Shown piece by piece: positions 4,162 to 55,153 of a stretch of DNA of 64,000 nucleotides. This DNA comes from an uncultured Peptoniphilus sp. (GTDB lineage: Bacteria; Bacillota; Clostridia; Tissierellales; Peptoniphilaceae), in assembly GCF_946222045.1 (NCBI RefSeq), contig NZ_CAMILN010000001.1, forward strand, positions 46,892 to 110,891. The letters run 5' to 3'. Under the pieces are notes generated by a model, which saw only the letters and a list, made by a program, of their open reading frames with translations, was not told the origin of the DNA and did no database searches. The stretch's first letter is position 1. Each line of letters starts with the position of its first letter. Position numbers and translations under genes: made by a program.

Positions 4162-4267
4162 AATCTCACTTCCTTTTGCCTAATTTTATCACAATAATTT
4201 TTGAATTTCACTTTTATCTACTTGTGTTATAATGAAGGTAAGAATGCAATGAACAATGGAGGTTTTT

Positions 4268-5287
4268 ATGAAAAAAAATGTTGGCATAATGGGCTTTGGT
4301 AGAATTGGTAGAGATGCTCTAAGGATCTGGGCCCTAAGAGACGATGTTAATTTTGAAGTTACTCACGTAGCTGTTAGAAATTTGGACAAAACTTTAAAAG
4401 AAAGAACTCACCTATTTAAATTCGACTCAATCTATAGAAAGTTCCCTGGTGAAATTGAGCTCACTGACGACGGAATGATTATCAATGGAAAGAAAGTTAC
4501 TTTCGTTGAATCAAAGACACCTGACAAGATGAACTGGAAAGACCTTGGTGTTGATGTTGTTATTGATTCATCTGGTGCCTTCAAGGACGAAGAACAAGCA
4601 AGAGGTCACCTTGAAAGTGGTGCAAAAAAAGTTGTCTTAACTTCTCCAGGCAAGGGCGACATGCTTACAGTTGTTATGGGAGTTAACGACGACAAGTACG
4701 ATCCAGAAAAACACGACATTATCTCTAACGCGTCTTGTACAACAAACTGTCTTGCTCCAGTGACTAAGGTTATCTTAGAAAACTTCGGAATCAAGAAGGG
4801 ACTTATGTCCACTGTTCACGCTTACACTAACGACCAAAACATCCACGACGGTGTTCACAAGAAGGACATGAGACGTGCAAGAATGGGAGCAGAAAATATC
4901 ATTCCAACTTCAACTGGTGCAGCTAAGGCTGTTGGAAAAGTTATTCCAGAAGTTGACGGAATCTTAACTGGCTTTGCCCTAAGAGTTCCTGTTCCAACTG
5001 GATCATTAGTTGACGTAACTTTTGAACTTGAAAAAGAAGCTACAGTTGAAGAAATCAACGCAGCTATCAAGAAGGCTTCTGAAAACGAATTAAAGGGTAT
5101 CCTTGCTTACTCAGAAGATGAACTTGTTTCTTCTGACATCATTGGCGACGAACACTCTTCTATTTTCGATTCACTTCTTACAACTGTTAACGGAAAAATG
5201 GTTAAACTTGTTTCATGGTATGACAACGAATGGGGTTACACAGAAAGAGTTATTGACCTAACAGAAAAAATTGTTGAATCTCTATAA
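4268..5287 (+). CDS. gap: Glyceraldehyde-3-phosphate dehydrogenase
   Basis: NAD-binding N-terminus MKKNVGIMGFGRIGR and catalytic motif SNASCTTNCLAP. ATG at 4268 preferred over the ORF-track start (4256) on N-terminal family shape. Extended -10 TGtTATAAT upstream. Confidence 0.92.
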   Translation: MKKNVGIMGFGRIGRDALRIWALRDDVNFEVTHVAVRNLDKTLKERTHLFKFDSIYRKFPGEIELTDDGMIINGKKVTFVESKTPDKMNWKDLGVDVVIDSSGAFKDEEQARGHLESGAKKVVLTSPGKGDMLTVVMGVNDDKYDPEKHDIISNASCTTNCLAPVTKVILENFGIKKGLMSTVHAYTNDQNIHDGVHKKDMRRARMGAENIIPTSTGAAKAVGKVIPEVDGILTGFALRVPVPTGSLVDVTFELEKEATVEEINAAIKKASENELKGILAYSEDELVSSDIIGDEHSSIFDSLLTTVNGKMVKLVSWYDNEWGYTERVIDLTEKIVESL

Positions 5288-5450: not shown

Positions 5451-5484
5451 AAAAATTAAGACCAAGGTGTGCAAGCCTTGGTCT
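5451..5484 (-). terminator. Terminator of the metA-aspartokinase gene (bidirectional hairpin)
   Basis: 8-bp stem GACCAAGG/CCTTGGTC immediately downstream of the stop at 5488-5490. T-run on the minus strand. Confidence 0.6.
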
Positions 5485-5487
5485 TTT

Positions 5488-7284
5488 TTAATCCTTTATA
5501 ATTGTCCCATGATTATCTGGGTCATTTGTGTTTAAAATTTTTATAGTTATATTTTTCTTGGCAACGGGATTTATGGCATCTTCTTGATAAACTTGGGCTC
5601 CCTCCCCAATTATTTCCTTTAATTCCGTGTAGGAAAGCTTGTCAATAGTCTTGGCATCTGGGTCACTGTTGGGGTCTGATGTCATAATTCCATTTACGTC
5701 AGTCCAGTTCTCGTAGACTTTGGAGTCAAGGGCATAGGCAATTAGGCTGCCTGTATAATCGCTACCTCCCCTAGTGAAGGTCACAATATTTCCCTTCTCG
5801 TCGCTACCATAAAAGCCTGGAACAACTGCCTTTTTGTTTTCTCCAATGTGACTTTGGATGGCCCTCTTGGACTTTTCTATATCAACTTGTCCCCTTTCAT
5901 CAAAGATTATTAGGTCCTTGGCATCAATAAAGTCGTAGGTCAAGTATTTTGCAAGTAACTTGGCATTAAGGTATTCGCCCCTGGACACAATGAAGTCCTT
6001 GTCCCTGGACTCCTTTATCTCATCAAAAACAAATTTCAACTCATCATCCCAAAAGTCTTCAAGATCCAGGTCTTGAGCTATGGATAAAAATCTCTTTTTA
6101 ATTTTCTCTACTTGCTTGTCACGGCTTAGACTTTGGACTTCTAATTCCTCTTCAAGGGACTTGATAATCTCTCTGACCTCTTCAATCCTCAAATTTTTGT
6201 CAGAAAGAGAAATCAATTCGTCAGTAATCTTTGTGTCCTTTTTAAATCTTCTTCCCGGTGCAGAAACCACAATCACGTCCCTATCTTCCTTGGAAAAGAT
6301 AATTTTTTTCACCTTGGCAAATTGCCCTGCGTCCTTCAGGGAGCTGCCGCCAAATTTTGAAACTGACTTCCCCTCAATGCTATCAATGGCAAAGGGTGTT
6401 TCTTGGTAGACGCAGTAGTTGAGCCAGTTAGAGAAGAAGAGATTGCCTGCAGACCTCCACCTAATTTTTATGTCCTTCTTATGGTCGTTGTCCTCATAAT
6501 AATTTATTGGTGGACTGATTTTTTTGCCTTGAGAAAGATCCCTGATGTACTCATTGTGGAGGGTGTCTTTGTCATATTCCCAGTGGCCAAAATTAAAGAC
6601 AAAGCGGTTGTCCTTAGTTGTCACAAGGGAAACTCCAGTGTCAGGTCTTGCTGCAAGGACTTCAAGGTCTGAAAAGTCTTCAAAATCTTCAAGGTCAACG
6701 TAAGTGTGTCTTGATGTTGGGACCAAGAAGCTGTCATCAAATCCCTTGACAATCTTATTATCTTTTAGTTTGTCAAATTCAAAAACTCCAAAGATTTTCT
6801 CGTCGCTAAGCTTGTGCTCAATCTTGTAGTAGTGATATAGGGCCGCTTGGGCAGACCAACATATAAACATTGTGGAATAAACATTTTTCTTGGCAAATTC
6901 AAAAATTATCTTTAGTTCGTCCCAATATTTTATCTTTTCATAGGCAAGGGTTTCAATAGGGGCCCCAGTAATTATCATGGCGTCGTACTTATTGTTTTTT
7001 ATATCGTCATAAGTCTTGTAAAAAGACTTCAACCTCTTGGCATCGGAGTTATTTGGATTGTAGGACTCCATCCTCACAAGGTCAATGTTAATTTGTAGGG
7101 CAGTGTTTGAAAGCATCCTCAAGAGTTGAAGTTCAGTTTCTTCCTTCTTGGGCATCAAGTTTACAATAGCAATGCTAAGGGGTCTTATGTCCTGCTTAAT
7201 GGCAGAGGAGTCCCTCATTGTAAAAATATTTTCTCTCTCTAAAACTTCTTCAACAATTAAATCTCTAGGTATTATTAATGGCAT
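5488..7284 (-). CDS. metA: Fusion protein: homoserine O-acyltransferase (MetA) N-terminal domain + aspartokinase catalytic domain lacking ACT regulatory domains
   Basis: Start moved to ATG at 7284 (MPLIIPRDLIVEE), which has RBS AAAGAGGAG upstream. The ORF-track start at 7425 would read through the T-box leader. The N-terminal ~300 aa carry MetA motifs (AIVNLMPKK, ITGAPIE, CWSAQAALYHYY). The C-terminal ~300 aa carry amino-acid-kinase motifs (KFGGSSL, VVSAPG, FTRGGSDYTGS, TDVNGIMTSDPN). The protein ends where aspartokinases normally continue into ACT domains. Confidence 0.75.
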   Translation of the reverse strand: MPLIIPRDLIVEEVLERENIFTMRDSSAIKQDIRPLSIAIVNLMPKKEETELQLLRMLSNTALQINIDLVRMESYNPNNSDAKRLKSFYKTYDDIKNNKYDAMIITGAPIETLAYEKIKYWDELKIIFEFAKKNVYSTMFICWSAQAALYHYYKIEHKLSDEKIFGVFEFDKLKDNKIVKGFDDSFLVPTSRHTYVDLEDFEDFSDLEVLAARPDTGVSLVTTKDNRFVFNFGHWEYDKDTLHNEYIRDLSQGKKISPPINYYEDNDHKKDIKIRWRSAGNLFFSNWLNYCVYQETPFAIDSIEGKSVSKFGGSSLKDAGQFAKVKKIIFSKEDRDVIVVSAPGRRFKKDTKITDELISLSDKNLRIEEVREIIKSLEEELEVQSLSRDKQVEKIKKRFLSIAQDLDLEDFWDDELKFVFDEIKESRDKDFIVSRGEYLNAKLLAKYLTYDFIDAKDLIIFDERGQVDIEKSKRAIQSHIGENKKAVVPGFYGSDEKGNIVTFTRGGSDYTGSLIAYALDSKVYENWTDVNGIMTSDPNSDPDAKTIDKLSYTELKEIIGEGAQVYQEDAINPVAKKNITIKILNTNDPDNHGTIIKD

Positions 7285-7289
7285 TTTTA

Positions 7290-7576
7290 TTCTCCTCTTT
7301 TTTATTTGTACTTGAGGAAGGAAAACAATAAAAAAAGCTTCCATCCCTAAAGGACGAAAGCTATTTCGTGTTACCACCTTAATTCTCTTCCAACTCGCGA
7401 TGGAAGACTCTTCAAGTACTATCATACTCTATCGCTGTAACGGGCGCGCCCGTGCCTATCTAAATATCGATAGACCCTCAAGAAGGACCATGTTCTCCCA
7501 ATCTTCCTCTACTTCTCTCACCAAACGAAGCTCTCTTTAATCAGTCAAGAAGGATACTCTTCCTCTTATTGAGTTA
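7290..7576 (-). promoter_or_regulatory. T-box riboswitch leader of the metA-aspartokinase fusion; candidate specifier AUG (Met)
   Basis: Minus-strand RNA contains an AGAGA box, a distal stem-I hairpin, and the T-box core GAAUUAAGGUGGUAACACG (consensus AAUUAGGGUGGUACCGCG). An overlapping terminator GCUUUCGUCC...GGGAUGGAAGC + UUUUUUU follows, 5 nt before the RBS. AUG followed by a purine lies in the stem-I region (GAACAUGGUCC). Confidence 0.6.
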
Positions 7577-7585
7577 TTTTCCATT

Positions 7586-7614
7586 ATAATAGCACCAAAA
7601 AACCTTAATGTCAA
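7586..7614 (-). promoter_or_regulatory. Sigma-A-type promoter driving the metA T-box leader
   Basis: Minus strand TTGACA-17 nt-TATTAT. Confidence 0.5.
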
Positions 7615-7654: not shown

Positions 7655-7895
7655 TAGTTTTTTATGACTTAATAAATTATTAGGGTTTTTTTCTTATCTC
7701 TAAGTCAATTATTTTTTATGACCTTATAAATTTCTATCACTTAATATATTTTTATCACTTCATATTTCTTTATAACTTAAGATTTTCTCATTACTTCATA
7801 TATTTTTATCATTTCATAATTTCTTCTCAAGTCATAAAATCTTATCACTTTATATTTTTTTAAACTTATAAATATTTACAAGTTTCAAATTTTAC
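7655..7895. repeat. Array of ~11 degenerate 18-bp tandem repeats (core TTTTTATGACYT / TTTTATCACTT)
   Basis: Successive units read tttttatgacttaataaat, tttttatgaccttataaat, ttctatcacttaatatat, ttttatcacttcatattt, ctttataacttaagattt, tctcattacttcatatat, ttttatcatttcataatt... in non-coding DNA between citF and the metA leader. Confidence 0.6.
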
Positions 7896-7948: not shown

Positions 7949-9499
7949 TTAAGCTTCCTTCTTAATTACATCGATTATAGAACCATCTCTGTATTCTACA
8001 ACTGCAACTACTTCGTCAGAGAATTCAACTTCTTCAGGTTTACCTGTAAGTTTTTCTGCCATTTCTTGTAGTTCTTTGATGTTCTTAAGTTCAATTCCAG
8101 CTTTTTCGAATTTTTCGATTAAGTCTTTTCTCTTTGGATTTACAGCAATACCGTAGTCAGTACAAATTACGTCTACAGCTTCGCCTGGTGTACAAACTGT
8201 TGTAACCTTGTCTTTGACAATTGGGTTTCTTGATCTTACAAGTGGTGCAAGTATAAGTGACATTTCTGCACCAGGTGCTGTATCTTGGTGACCACCAACT
8301 GCTTGGTTAATAACTCCGTCTGATCTTGTCATTACGTTTACGTTGAAGTCAGTGTCAACTTCAAGAGCTCCAAGTAATACAAAGTCTAGAGTGTTAACTG
8401 CAGGTGTTGGGTTGTTAGGGTTTGCATAAGAAGATGCAGTTTGTTCAAAGTGTTTTTTGTTTTCACGGATTGATCTTACTGCGTCAAGGTCAAAGGATTG
8501 TGTATCATAGATACCGTCGATAAGACCTTCTTCAAGCATTGTCACCATATAGCCAGTGATTCCACCAAGGGCCATTGATGCCTTGATGTCATCCTTCTTC
8601 ATTTCTTCACGAAGAAGTTTTGCAACTGCAAGAGTTGAACCTGCTGCTCCAGTTTGGAATCTAAAGCCGTCCTTGTAAAGTCCAGAAGCCTTGATTGCCT
8701 TAACTGCGTTGTTGGCAATTAATAGGTCACGAGGGTTGTCGTTAAACCTAATTGATCCAGAAACAATTCCCTTTGGATCTCCAATTGCGTCAACTTCTAC
8801 AACATAGTCAACATACATCATGCCAATTGAAGCAGGAATATTTGGGAATGGTACAAGGTTGTCTGTAATTGCAACTACACAGTCAGCGTACTGTGCATCA
8901 ACAATTGCATAGCCAAGTGATCCACAAGCTGCCTTTCCTTCTCTACCATTTATGTTTCCATATTCATCACATGCTGGTGCTGCTAAAAAGGCAACGTCAA
9001 TGTGAAGTTCCCCATCTTCAATTGCTCTTGCACGTCCACCGTGAGAACGGATAATGCAAGGTTTTTTAAGGATCCCTTGTGAAATTTTTTCTCCAAGTTC
9101 TCCTCTTAGTCCAGATGATTGAATTCCAGTTATTACACCTTGTTCAATTAGTGGGATTAACTTGTCGTGACATGGTGAAAGTGATGATGGAGCAAGAGTT
9201 AGGTCCTTGATTCCCATATCAGCAATAACTTGCATTACCATATTTACAACATAGTCACCATTTCTTAGGTGGTGGTGGAAGGAAATTGTCATTCCGTCCT
9301 TAAGTCCACTCTTCTTAACAGCTTCTTCAATAGAGCCTAGAAGTTTTTTCTCGTCCCTATTTCCGTATCTAATTTTTGGAGAAGCCTTTCTTTCAGTTCT
9401 AAGATATTTGCCTTCGCCTTTGAAAGGAACAAGTTCGCCAATGCCTTCAAGGGATTCAGGGATATCTCTTCCTACTGCGTTTTTATTATAGTTCATCAA
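7949..9499 (-). CDS. citF: Citrate lyase alpha subunit (citrate CoA-transferase)
   Basis: 516-aa protein. The family call rests on its length and its position immediately after citD and citE in the cluster; I did not verify a CitF-specific motif. Confidence 0.88.
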   Translation of the reverse strand: MMNYNKNAVGRDIPESLEGIGELVPFKGEGKYLRTERKASPKIRYGNRDEKKLLGSIEEAVKKSGLKDGMTISFHHHLRNGDYVVNMVMQVIADMGIKDLTLAPSSLSPCHDKLIPLIEQGVITGIQSSGLRGELGEKISQGILKKPCIIRSHGGRARAIEDGELHIDVAFLAAPACDEYGNINGREGKAACGSLGYAIVDAQYADCVVAITDNLVPFPNIPASIGMMYVDYVVEVDAIGDPKGIVSGSIRFNDNPRDLLIANNAVKAIKASGLYKDGFRFQTGAAGSTLAVAKLLREEMKKDDIKASMALGGITGYMVTMLEEGLIDGIYDTQSFDLDAVRSIRENKKHFEQTASSYANPNNPTPAVNTLDFVLLGALEVDTDFNVNVMTRSDGVINQAVGGHQDTAPGAEMSLILAPLVRSRNPIVKDKVTTVCTPGEAVDVICTDYGIAVNPKRKDLIEKFEKAGIELKNIKELQEMAEKLTGKPEEVEFSDEVVAVVEYRDGSIIDVIKKEA

Positions 9500-53237: not shown

Positions 53238-53581
53238 TGGTGGAGGCGGTGGGAGTCGAACCCACGTCCGAAGACCTCTTACAGAAAGATTCTCCGAGTG
53301 CAGACTCCTCTTTAGTTTTCCCCTGTATTACTAGAGTGTCAAACTCATACAGGGTATCGCCATAAACCCCCTCTGCTATGACGCATCACAGAGTTCGTTT
53401 GCCCGCTAATTTGAAACCCGGTTGCAGATCGCGGTGTCTGGCCGGATTGCTACCTAATTAGGCAGCTAGTGCGAAATTATTTTCGTCGTTTATTTTTTAA
53501 TAGACCATTTTTACGTTGTGTGATCCATCAACGACTCGCTACTTTAAGCTCAAAATCCCCGTCGAAACCATTTTCGCCCCC
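53238..53581 (-). ncRNA. ssrA: tmRNA (transfer-messenger RNA)
   Basis: Minus-strand RNA starts GGGGGCGAAAAUGGUUUCGACGGGG and ends GGACGUGGGUUCGACUCCCACCGCCUCCACCA, a tRNA-Ala-like acceptor/T-arm. Internal tag reading frame ...GAC GAA AAU AAU UUC GCA CUA GCU GCC UAA (…DENNFALAA*) is followed by UUAGG as in known tmRNAs. Confidence 0.9.
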
Positions 53582-55076: not shown

Positions 55077-55153
55077 CGGGGTGTAGCGCAGTTTGGTAGC
55101 GCACGTGGTTTGGGACCATGGGGCCGGGGGTTCGAATCCTCTCACCCCGACCA
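55077..55153 (+). tRNA. tRNA-Pro (anticodon UGG)
   Basis: Cloverleaf: acceptor CGGGGTG/CACCCCG, D-arm GCGC-AGTTTGGTA-GCGC, anticodon arm CGTGG-TTTGGGA-CCATG, T-loop TTCGAAT, encoded CCA. Confidence 0.93.

Follow-up and report, generated by a model that had tools for sequence, protein, structure and literature searches.

A MetA-aspartokinase fusion without ACT domains downstream of a T-box leader in an uncultured Peptoniphilus sp.

Background

Aspartokinase (AK) is the textbook allosteric entry to lysine, threonine, and methionine synthesis, and the ACT domain is the textbook regulatory module. E. coli ThrA and MetL each join an AK isozyme to an enzyme that acts further down one branch of the aspartate pathway, not in the next step, namely homoserine dehydrogenase (step 3), and MetL is a methionine-branch isozyme controlled through expression and not through end-product inhibition. 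The class I AK of C. acetobutylicum (3TVI, PRK09034) contains a catalytic domain (residues 1-282) and two ACT domains, which bind lysine and mediate dimerisation (PMC4142519). B. cereus has a free-standing MetA of about 300 aa (2GHR/2VDJ). Met T-box regulons place an AUG-specifier attenuator on methionine genes, as in the met genes of Lactobacillales and in S. aureus metICFE-mdh, for whose leader a preference for initiator tRNA was reported (PMC3771891). A full-text search of an open-access library returned no relevant paper on a MetA-aspartokinase fusion.

The locus described here was found in a 64-kb window (the whole stretch of DNA that was analysed). Its architecture is not unique to the window and is related to the known bifunctional aspartokinases and Met T-box regulons. 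Compared with ThrA and MetL, the partner of the kinase is MetA (step 4), the domains stand in the opposite order, with the kinase at the C-terminus, and ThrA/MetL-type profiles matched the kinase part only; no homoserine dehydrogenase domain (NAD_binding_3, Homoserine_dh) was found in the 598-aa protein on Pfam, and the resemblance is functional only. A T-box RNA takes the place that the MetJ repressor has for MetL. Catalytic motifs and fold of the kinase half are shared with 3TVI, but both ACT domains are absent and MetA is attached N-terminally. The Cys-His-Glu catalytic residues and Glu111 are shared with B. cereus MetA, which lacks the 299 further kinase residues present here. Unlike in the known Met T-box regulons, the regulated product includes an aspartokinase.

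Gene and domain architecture

Open reading frame analysis showed a minus-strand gene (5488-7284) coding for a single protein of 598 aa, or 599 codons with the stop (5488-5490), which directly follows the kinase domain. The maximal ORF was 5488..7425 (645 aa), and the real start is ATG 7284; a ribosome-binding site read directly from the sequence, AGGAG (7292..7296, minus strand), precedes it by 7 nt. One uninterrupted 599-codon ORF joining MetA to an aspartokinase had been claimed in the first-pass annotation; HTS and AA_kinase were both matched in it, and all of the quoted motifs were recovered in the translation (AIVNLMPKK and CWSAQAALYHYY in the MetA half; KFGGSSL, VVSAPG, RGGSDYTGS, and TDVNGIMTSDPN in the kinase half). 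That annotation did not give the strand. A bidirectional terminator hairpin (5458..5485) closes the monocistronic unit, and the neighbour beyond the gene end is a convergent GAPDH gene (4256-5287, plus strand). No metY, hom, or asd was found in the 64-kb window, in which the fusion gene is solitary.

The MetA-type homoserine O-acyltransferase domain covers residues 1-299 (6388..7284, minus strand; Pfam HTS residues 2-298). All 298 positions of the HTS profile (PF04204) were matched (397 bits, cut-off 27, E 5e-119), and the N-terminal half was collinear over the full length with B. cereus MetA (2GHR/2VDJ) at about 50% identity, in agreement with the complete acyltransferase proposed earlier. 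The catalytic residues expected of MetA (Cys142-His235-Glu237 in E. coli numbering, plus Lys47) were all present, and Lys47, Glu111, Cys142, His234, and Glu236 were invariant in the MetA half of 105 aligned fusions. Residue 111 is Glu within GAPIETL, the same as in B. cereus acetyl-MetA, and Gly in the aligned E. coli protein; Glu111 is the residue reported to set acetyl-CoA specificity in MetA. The top NCBIfam match of this half was MetA_acetyl (410 bits, below the exception-model cut-off of 460.5), and the partner gene in relatives codes for O-acetylhomoserine sulfhydrylase (TIGR01326, 620 bits). From Glu111, the MetA_acetyl match, and this partner, the domain is predicted to be acetyl-CoA specific.

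A linker of 8 residues (300-307; 6364..6387, minus strand) fills the gap between the Pfam envelopes and coincides with a pLDDT dip to 61-74. The aspartokinase catalytic domain follows at residues 308-598 (5491..6363, minus strand; Pfam AA_kinase residues 308-585), with AA_kinase (PF00696) at 129 bits against a cut-off of 24.9 (E 2.5e-37). The KFGG(S/T)S, SRGE, RGGSD, and WTDV(x)G motifs and the aspartate- and ATP-binding residues aligned to 3TVI, 2HMF, and 2J0W, which upheld the earlier assignment of this half; the closest solved relative was 3TVI, of which residues 6-276 aligned (E 1.5e-60). Lys310, Ser341, Glu437, Arg505-Gly-Gly-Ser-Asp509, and Thr528-Asp529 were invariant across the 105 fusions, and the invariance of phosphate- and aspartate-binding residues at 42-60% sequence identity indicates that the active site is under purifying selection. 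The equivalent of E. coli AKIII Lys257 is Gln here, and is likewise not Lys in the solved C. acetobutylicum AK. A helical insertion of about 20 residues (around residues 370-400) was seen in the Peptoniphilus group and in protein P0121.

No Pfam ACT family matched the 598-aa protein even at E<=1, and the protein ends 2 residues past the equivalent of C. acetobutylicum AK residue 276. PRK09034 was matched at positions 2-288 of 454 with motifs free of gaps, and its score (263 bits against a cut-off of 434), like the NCBIfam aspartokinase scores in general, is low because the ACT third of the profile is missing; by the ACT search (E<=1) and PRK09034 alike, the protein was not a full-length aspartokinase equivalog with two C-terminal ACT domains. 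An AlphaFold2 model built on the 105-sequence alignment (pLDDT 90, compared to 32 in a single-sequence run) matched MetA and AK catalytic folds only, with TM 0.92-0.97 to solved MetA structures; the orientation of the domains is undefined in it (pTM 0.54, linker pLDDT 61-74). The lack of ACT domains claimed earlier was thus found at both levels. An ACT-like fold in the C-terminal tail, for which structure prediction had been suggested as a check, was rejected, as the alignment of the catalytic domain leaves only 2 residues behind it and the model ends with the last strand of that domain.

Promoter, T-box leader and terminator

Upstream of the gene, a sigma-A-type promoter (7586..7614, minus strand) was found with TTGACA, a 17-nt spacer, and an extended -10 TGnTATTAT (11/12 matches, TG present), and the predicted transcript start, 7578, falls exactly where the T-box model begins. 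The T-box leader (7347..7578, minus strand), comprising Stem I with the specifier loop, Stem III, and the antiterminator, scored 94.2 bits on Rfam RF00230 against a gathering score of 93 (E 1e-20), with the model fully covered (1-219); the core GAAUUAAGGUGGUAACACG quoted earlier was present. The Rfam structure line placed the specifier codon AUG at 7489..7491 (minus strand) in the 3' side (8 nt) of the specifier loop, GAA-C-AUG-G, where it is followed by a purine (G), as T-box criteria require; the AAGGUGGUAACACG core and an overlapping terminator were also present. GAA-N-AUG-G was unchanged in 6/6 homologous leaders, the base before AUG being C or G. Homologous leaders lie upstream of the orthologous gene or operon in L004, L086, L087, L092, and L093.

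The T-box core and antiterminator (AAUUAAGGUGGUAACACG...UUUCGUCCUU; 7347..7383, minus strand, Rfam model positions 183-219) contains a UGGU bulge that, by the established T-box mechanism, would pair with the tRNA 3' ACCA end. A terminator search located an intrinsic terminator (7326..7362, minus strand; hairpin 7362..7336) with a 12-bp stem, a 3-nt loop, and a U7 tract, and its 5' arm overlaps the 3' arm of the antiterminator (MFE -20.5 kcal/mol, z = -2.4). Promoter, T-box leader, overlapping terminator, and AUG specifier had all been proposed from the sequence and were recovered here, the covariance model placing a Met codon in the specifier loop. Elongator and initiator tRNA-Met are not distinguishable from an AUG specifier.

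Distribution, genomic context and fusion types

The architecture HTS plus AA_kinase without ACT, for which a database search was proposed in the first-pass annotation, belongs to a large family across Tissierellia that is already in public databases. Fusions with both domains and a length of exactly 598 aa make up over 100 independent clusters at the 90% identity level (85-96% identity), from isolates as well as metagenomes. Hundreds of orthologues of 580-610 aa occur in Peptoniphilus, Anaerosphaera, Natronincola, and other Tissierellia, and these (47-64% identity) all end 2-12 residues past the GT(I/L/E)(I/V) end of the catalytic domain. Stand-alone ACT-less AKs (256-283 aa) are present within the same subfamily. 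The contig scan with the fusion alignment gave no Peptoniphilus among the matches listed, which were nearly all plain MetA, with fusions in L006 and L007 only.

The gene lies in an operon metY-fusion-hom-asd in L089 and L093, metY-fusion-hom in L091, and metY-fusion in L087, L088, and L092; the hom genes of these operons are likewise ACT-less. Operons carrying asd and hom contained no second kinase gene. For the metY-fusion-hom-asd operon to cover the whole route between aspartate and homocysteine, the fused domain has to be the aspartokinase, which supports that identity. No ACT-only or beta-subunit ORF adjoined the fusion in eight ACT-less lineages (9 loci, window included), lineages being sampled individually by homologue-encoding contigs and not as a species-level census.

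MetA-AK-ACT fusions of 750-770 aa form a separate type, common in Anaerovoracaceae and Mogibacterium. These uncharacterised proteins (Anaerovoracaceae, Mogibacterium, 'Eubacterium') share the catalytic domains and their order with the present fusion at 42-45% identity, but keep the ACT region (PF22468) that is absent here. A Met T-box or SAM riboswitch precedes the gene or operon in 7/8 ACT-less lineages compared to 0/4 ACT-containing lineages, a sample of 12 lineages in which kinship was ignored. No known RNA element was credible upstream of the remaining ACT-less fusion (L091, a third fusion type), even at E<=5, and no known RNA element assignable to them, Met T-box and SAM riboswitch included, was found upstream of the ACT-containing fusions (4 lineages) at E<=0.01 to 0.5. 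Within this small sample RNA control tracks ACT loss, which supports the earlier suggestion that control was transferred from allostery to RNA. ACT-less, ACT-containing, and P0123-type fusions fell into separate clades in both domain trees (neighbour-joining, midpoint-rooted distance trees without support values), which is suggestive of MetA-AK fusions having arisen independently, more than once.

Proposed function and alternative explanations

The gene probably encodes a bifunctional methionine-pathway enzyme in which an ACT-less AK isozyme and an acetylating MetA are set at transcription by a tRNA-Met T-box. Judged from the metY-fusion-hom-asd operons of relatives, the kinase half is most likely a methionine-dedicated isozyme, which would liken it to MetL as a methionine-branch isozyme controlled through expression. 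By the conserved residues of both halves, the MetA domain would acetylate homoserine, the first committed step of methionine synthesis, and the kinase would phosphorylate aspartate, step one of the aspartate pathway. Since Asd and Hom act between these non-consecutive reactions, the fusion would ensure co-expression and a fixed stoichiometry, and possibly aid assembly, rather than channel a substrate, a role comparable to that of ThrA and MetL. A kinase without ACT domains would escape inhibition by lysine, threonine, or SAM through the usual site, and the protein is expected to be insensitive to such feedback.

Supply would instead be set by transcription. By default, the transcript from the sigma-A promoter would end at the hairpin that lies 50 nt upstream of the start codon. 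Once uncharged tRNA-Met builds up, base pairing of its CAU anticodon to the AUG specifier, together with stabilisation of the antiterminator by the free tRNA 3' end, would let the gene be read through; the leader is accordingly predicted to respond to tRNA-Met. The fusion is probably not the sole aspartokinase of the organism: a reconstruction of P. harei contained two LysC-role genes and Asd, with predicted lysine auxotrophy and threonine and methionine prototrophy (PMC9026213 supplement).

The 598-aa frame could in principle be an artefact, either a frameshift or misassembly of adjacent metA and lysC or a premature stop removing ACT. This has a negligible chance of being true, as the more than 100 clusters, independent of one another and drawn from isolates as well as metagenomes, share this frame, the more distant orthologues end at nearly the same point, and the stop is followed by a terminator and then the convergent GAPDH gene, which leaves no downstream ACT-coding sequence; a sequencing error between the halves, named beforehand as grounds for refutation, is ruled out by this conservation. 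It is very unlikely that the C-terminal domain is no working aspartokinase, that is, a degenerate MetA appendage or an amino-acid-kinase-fold enzyme with another substrate. The PRK09034 score under the curated cut-off, the replaced Lys257 equivalent, and annotation pipelines that call the protein MetA only would all fit such a domain, but the low score is due to the absent ACT third, the gap-free motifs and invariant active-site residues persist across sequences only 42-60% identical, and the asd/hom operons have no other kinase.

Homologues of MetA form dimers, and methionine together with SAM inhibits the E. coli enzyme. The kinase could then still be allosteric through another module, with MetA supplying the dimer interface and transmitting methionine/SAM or homoserine-derived signals, or with an ACT-bearing subunit acting in trans. 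In class I aspartokinases the ACT domains provide the dimer interface (PMC4142519), which something must replace; the separate clades of the fusion types suggest that physical linkage itself was selected, and the second AK-role gene of P. harei also points this way. We nevertheless regard this explanation as rather improbable, because the model gave no confident inter-domain interface, no ACT-only ORF adjoined the fusion in the ACT-less lineages sampled, and the stand-alone ACT-less AKs indicate a catalytic domain apparently viable without MetA.

A wider reading, which is possible but less likely than not, is that MetA-AK fusion is recurrent, with at least two or three origins, that the ACT-less route is governed by RNA, and that MetA acts as an oligomerisation and possibly regulatory scaffold. 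The AK and Hom of the route from aspartate to homocysteine would then have shed their allosteric domains, with RNA sensors of tRNA-Met charging or SAM governing alone. If true, this would be a natural feedback-insensitive aspartokinase with flux control that is purely transcriptional.

Implications for annotation and use

This large uncharacterised family appears to have dropped ACT, joined the kinase to the methionine-committing enzyme, and put tRNA- or SAM-sensing RNA in charge, and would show cleanly, in a natural setting, how regulation can pass from protein allostery to RNA. Feedback-insensitive aspartokinases and the adjacent ACT-less homoserine dehydrogenases could be useful for amino-acid production strains. 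The fusion protein is named only "homoserine O-succinyltransferase" in databases, a name that probably gives the wrong acyl donor and does not mention the kinase. Because it misleads, automated metabolic reconstructions of Tissierellia sampled from skin, wounds, and gut, Peptoniphilus among them, may misjudge their aspartokinase content and their ability to make methionine.

The ACT-containing sister architecture was absent from the first-pass annotation. Near these fusions, the T-box of a neighbouring TrpB-like gene was observed, and L006 contained a long hairpin.

Domain composition of the fusion protein

The longest ORF at the fusion locus was 5488..7425 on the minus strand, with the functional start at the ATG at 7284, seven bases past AGGAG, giving a protein of 598 aa. 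The first-pass annotation had described a complete MetA joined in one ORF to an aspartokinase (AK) catalytic domain without ACT domains, and this was borne out: Pfam assigned residues 2-298 to a complete HTS (MetA) domain (E 5e-119) and residues 308-585 to AA_kinase (E 2.5e-37), the ACT families produced no match even at E<=1, and the protein stopped at the end of the catalytic domain. In NCBIfam, the first half matched MetA_acetyl best and the second half aspartate kinase PRK09034, the latter match scoring below the equivalog cut-off because only profile positions 2-288 of 454 were covered. The alignment of the MetA half with B. cereus MetA (2GHR/2VDJ) was full-length. The kinase half aligned to residues 6-276 of the C. 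acetobutylicum aspartokinase 3TVI, whose catalytic domain (residues 1-282) is followed by two lysine-binding, dimer-forming ACT domains (PMC4142519); the fusion ended two residues beyond the aligned end at residue 276.

Structure prediction on a 105-sequence alignment (pLDDT 90) gave two well-folded domains joined by a linker of low confidence around residue 300, with the final strand at 594-596; the pTM of 0.54 leaves the mutual domain orientation undefined. Foldseek matched the model only to MetA structures (target TM 0.92-0.97) and to the catalytic part of aspartokinases, and an ACT-like fold hidden in the C-terminal tail was therefore excluded.

Catalytic residues

The MetA half carried Lys47, Cys142, His234, and Glu236, invariant in 105 fusion proteins, the last three being the counterparts in the alignment of the catalytic Cys142/His235/Glu237 of E. 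coli. The residue at position 111 of MetA reportedly selects acetyl-CoA (work of Zubieta et al.); it was Glu in the fusion (GAPIETL), as in the acetyl-MetA of B. cereus (GAPVETL) and unlike the succinyl-MetA of E. coli, which has Gly (GAPLGLV). In the kinase half, Lys310, Ser341, Glu437, Arg505-Asp509, and Thr528-Asp529 corresponded to Lys8, Ser39, Glu119, Arg198-Asp202, and Thr221-Asp222 of E. coli AKIII and showed no variation across the fusion family. The counterpart of AKIII Lys257 was Gln, a subfamily trait since this position is non-Lys in 3TVI as well. What the analysis establishes is the anatomy of the fusion system; its MetA and AK activities, feedback insensitivity, and tRNA response we infer.

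T-box leader and transcription unit

The Rfam T-box model matched the leader over its full length at 7347..7578 on the minus strand (94.2 bits, gathering score 93), the sole T-box within the 64-kb window. The sigma-A promoter described for the 5' UTR was found at 7614..7586 (minus strand) as an extended -10 promoter, TTGACA-17-TGnTATTAT, which sets the predicted transcript start at the first position of the T-box model. The Rfam structure line assigned eight bases, GAACAUGG, to the 3' side of the specifier loop, parsed as the S-turn GAA, a single spacer base, AUG, and a conserved purine ahead of helix closure. AUG, at 7491-7489 (minus strand), had been named as the plausible specifier. GAA-N-AUG-G was invariant in six aligned T-box leaders and the base ahead of AUG was C or G; since AUG is kept where its preceding base varies, the methionine specifier is conserved. 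The T-box core AAGGUGGUAACACG...UUUCGUCCUU makes up the antiterminator. A terminator hairpin of 12 bp with a U7 tract (7362..7326, minus strand) uses the antiterminator's 3' arm as its own 5' arm, the overlap that the annotation had pointed out. This layout is that of standard transcription attenuation.

With a second hairpin at the gene end (5458-5485), a convergent GAPDH gene, and a citrate lyase operon upstream, the fusion unit is monocistronic. The interval that separates the end of citF (7949) from the fusion-gene promoter contained a tandem array (7695-7880) of an AT-rich 18-bp unit, approximately TTTTTATCACTTNATATN, in about ten copies; in related Peptoniphilus loci the interval is occupied instead by a 988-aa LRR/Cu_amine_oxidN1 gene and a DUF6608 gene.

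Distribution and phylogeny of the fusions

A search of 5.8 billion proteins with the window fusion returned more than 100 clusters of exactly 598 aa (85-96% identity), every one with both domains, from Peptoniphilus harei, grossensis, senegalensis, and relatives; where a source gave a name, it was 'homoserine O-succinyltransferase' or 'O-acetyl/O-succinyltransferase family protein' and nothing more. An exhaustive search of 1.84 billion 50%-identity representatives yielded just a few clusters of full-length fusions: an ACT-less type (P0121, 601 aa), a shorter type (P0123, 540 aa), and P0122 (755 aa), which has an ACT domain by Pfam. With P0121 as query, ACT-less fusions of 580-610 aa, 47-64% identical to the window protein, were found in P. 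asaccharolyticus, P. obesi, Peptoniphilus oral taxon 375, Anaerosphaera, Natronincola, and many other Tissierellia, all terminating 2-12 residues past the catalytic domain. The P0122 query showed a MetA-AK-ACT type of 750-770 aa to be common in Anaerovoracaceae, Mogibacterium, and 'Eubacterium' MAGs.

Neighbour-joining trees, one per domain and without support values, placed the ACT-less fusions, the ACT-containing fusions, and P0123 in clades of their own with stand-alone MetA or AK proteins between them, which hints at independent fusion events. Stand-alone AK catalytic domains without ACT (256-283 aa) were P0133 (L090, 249-1082), P0226, P0244, and P0247. The P0133 gene, on a contig of just 1.5 kb, has its own RBS and a terminator-like hairpin upstream; the protein nested within the ACT-less fusion clade of the AK tree and may be a fission product. 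Relatives also had MetA-homoserine dehydrogenase fusions (669 and 698 aa), a MetA-MatE fusion (581 aa, possibly a merged gene call), and a HAD hydrolase-AK-ACT fusion (645 aa), in the set of representatives P0129, P0154, P0137, and P0182.

No description of a MetA-aspartokinase fusion was found in a full-text search of open-access literature, and the sequences have long been in public databases, incompletely named. Each component, like the regulatory device, is of a known kind; what is new is their combination, the ACT-less state, and the association with RNA control.

Gene neighbourhoods and predicted RNA control

Among the sampled loci of relatives, the ACT-less fusion stood in the order metY-fusion-hom-asd in L089 and L093 (followed in L093 by metK), metY-fusion-hom in L091 (P0123 type), and metY-fusion in Anaerosphaera (L087), Natronincola (L088), and Peptoniphilus oral taxon 375 (L092). 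It stood alone in P. asaccharolyticus (L086) and the Peptoniphilus AGMB00490 group (L004/L005), like in the window. NCBIfam identified metY as O-acetylhomoserine sulfhydrylase (TIGR01326, 620 bits) and hom and asd as homoserine dehydrogenase and aspartate-semialdehyde dehydrogenase. The metY-fusion-hom-asd operons contain all steps from aspartate to homocysteine if the fused kinase is counted, and lack step one without it. This is the strongest indirect evidence that the fused domain would be a working, methionine-dedicated aspartokinase. The adjoining hom proteins (L089 6935-7915, L093 5809-6786, L091 4915-5961; 325-348 aa) matched only positions 2-321 of 430 of PRK06349 and had no detectable ACT domain. 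Loss of the regulatory domain thus extends to the second enzyme of the pathway that is classically under feedback control.

Rfam (E<=0.001) detected two kinds of element ahead of the ACT-less fusion gene or its operon: the window, L086, L087, L092, and L093 had a T-box, whereas L088 and L089 had a SAM-I riboswitch; the L004 leader was homologous to the T-box leaders by alignment only, and L091 gave nothing credible even at E<=5. No T-box or SAM element was detected upstream of the ACT-containing fusions of L001, L002/L003, L006, and L007 at E<=0.01 to 0.5, the T-boxes present in such loci belonging to an adjoining TrpB-like gene. The tally, 7/8 ACT-less versus 0/4 ACT-containing lineages in a small sample uncorrected for phylogeny, fits the earlier proposal that control moved to RNA in fusions lacking the ACT domains.

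In L093, a SAM-I riboswitch (8543-8635) precedes metK directly downstream of the T-box-controlled operon, placing tRNA-Met and SAM sensing in one locus. The ACT-containing fusion was repeatedly followed by a convergent gene for a 461-aa TrpB-like PLP enzyme (PRK12391; L001 14940-16619, L002 12430-14161, L007 4848-6496), whose own T-box leader scored 55-78 bits, under the Rfam gathering score. Directly upstream of the L006 fusion gene was a long hairpin (2332-2440) with weak matches on both strands to several miRNA-precursor models and to no known riboswitch.

Predicted metabolic role

E. coli has the aspartokinase isozymes ThrA, MetL, and LysC, of which the methionine isozyme MetL is controlled by expression, not feedback inhibition; the isozyme logic would be alike here, and MetL is also a fusion. 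Under methionine sufficiency, charged tRNA-Met would be unable to stabilise the antiterminator and transcription would end at 7336-7362. When uncharged tRNA-Met rises, it would pair with AUG and the UGGU bulge, and the antiterminator would form. Synthesis of the bifunctional enzyme would follow, so that more flux enters the aspartate pathway and more homoserine is committed to methionine, with the kinase under no lysine or threonine veto. Because the fused reactions are non-consecutive (steps 1 and 4 of the route), channelling of an intermediate is excluded; the fusion probably pays off through coupled expression and perhaps through assembly, since class I aspartokinases dimerise via an ACT interface that is missing here. 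A published subsystem reconstruction predicted lysine auxotrophy together with threonine and methionine prototrophy for P. harei ACS-146-V-Sch2b, with one Asd and two LysC-role genes listed (PMC9026213, Tables S2 and S5); taken at face value, the fusion would be one of two aspartokinase isozymes.

The window also contained an ordinary tmRNA gene (53238-53581, minus strand; tag peptide DENNFALAA) and an ordinary tRNA-Pro(UGG) gene (55077-55153, plus strand).
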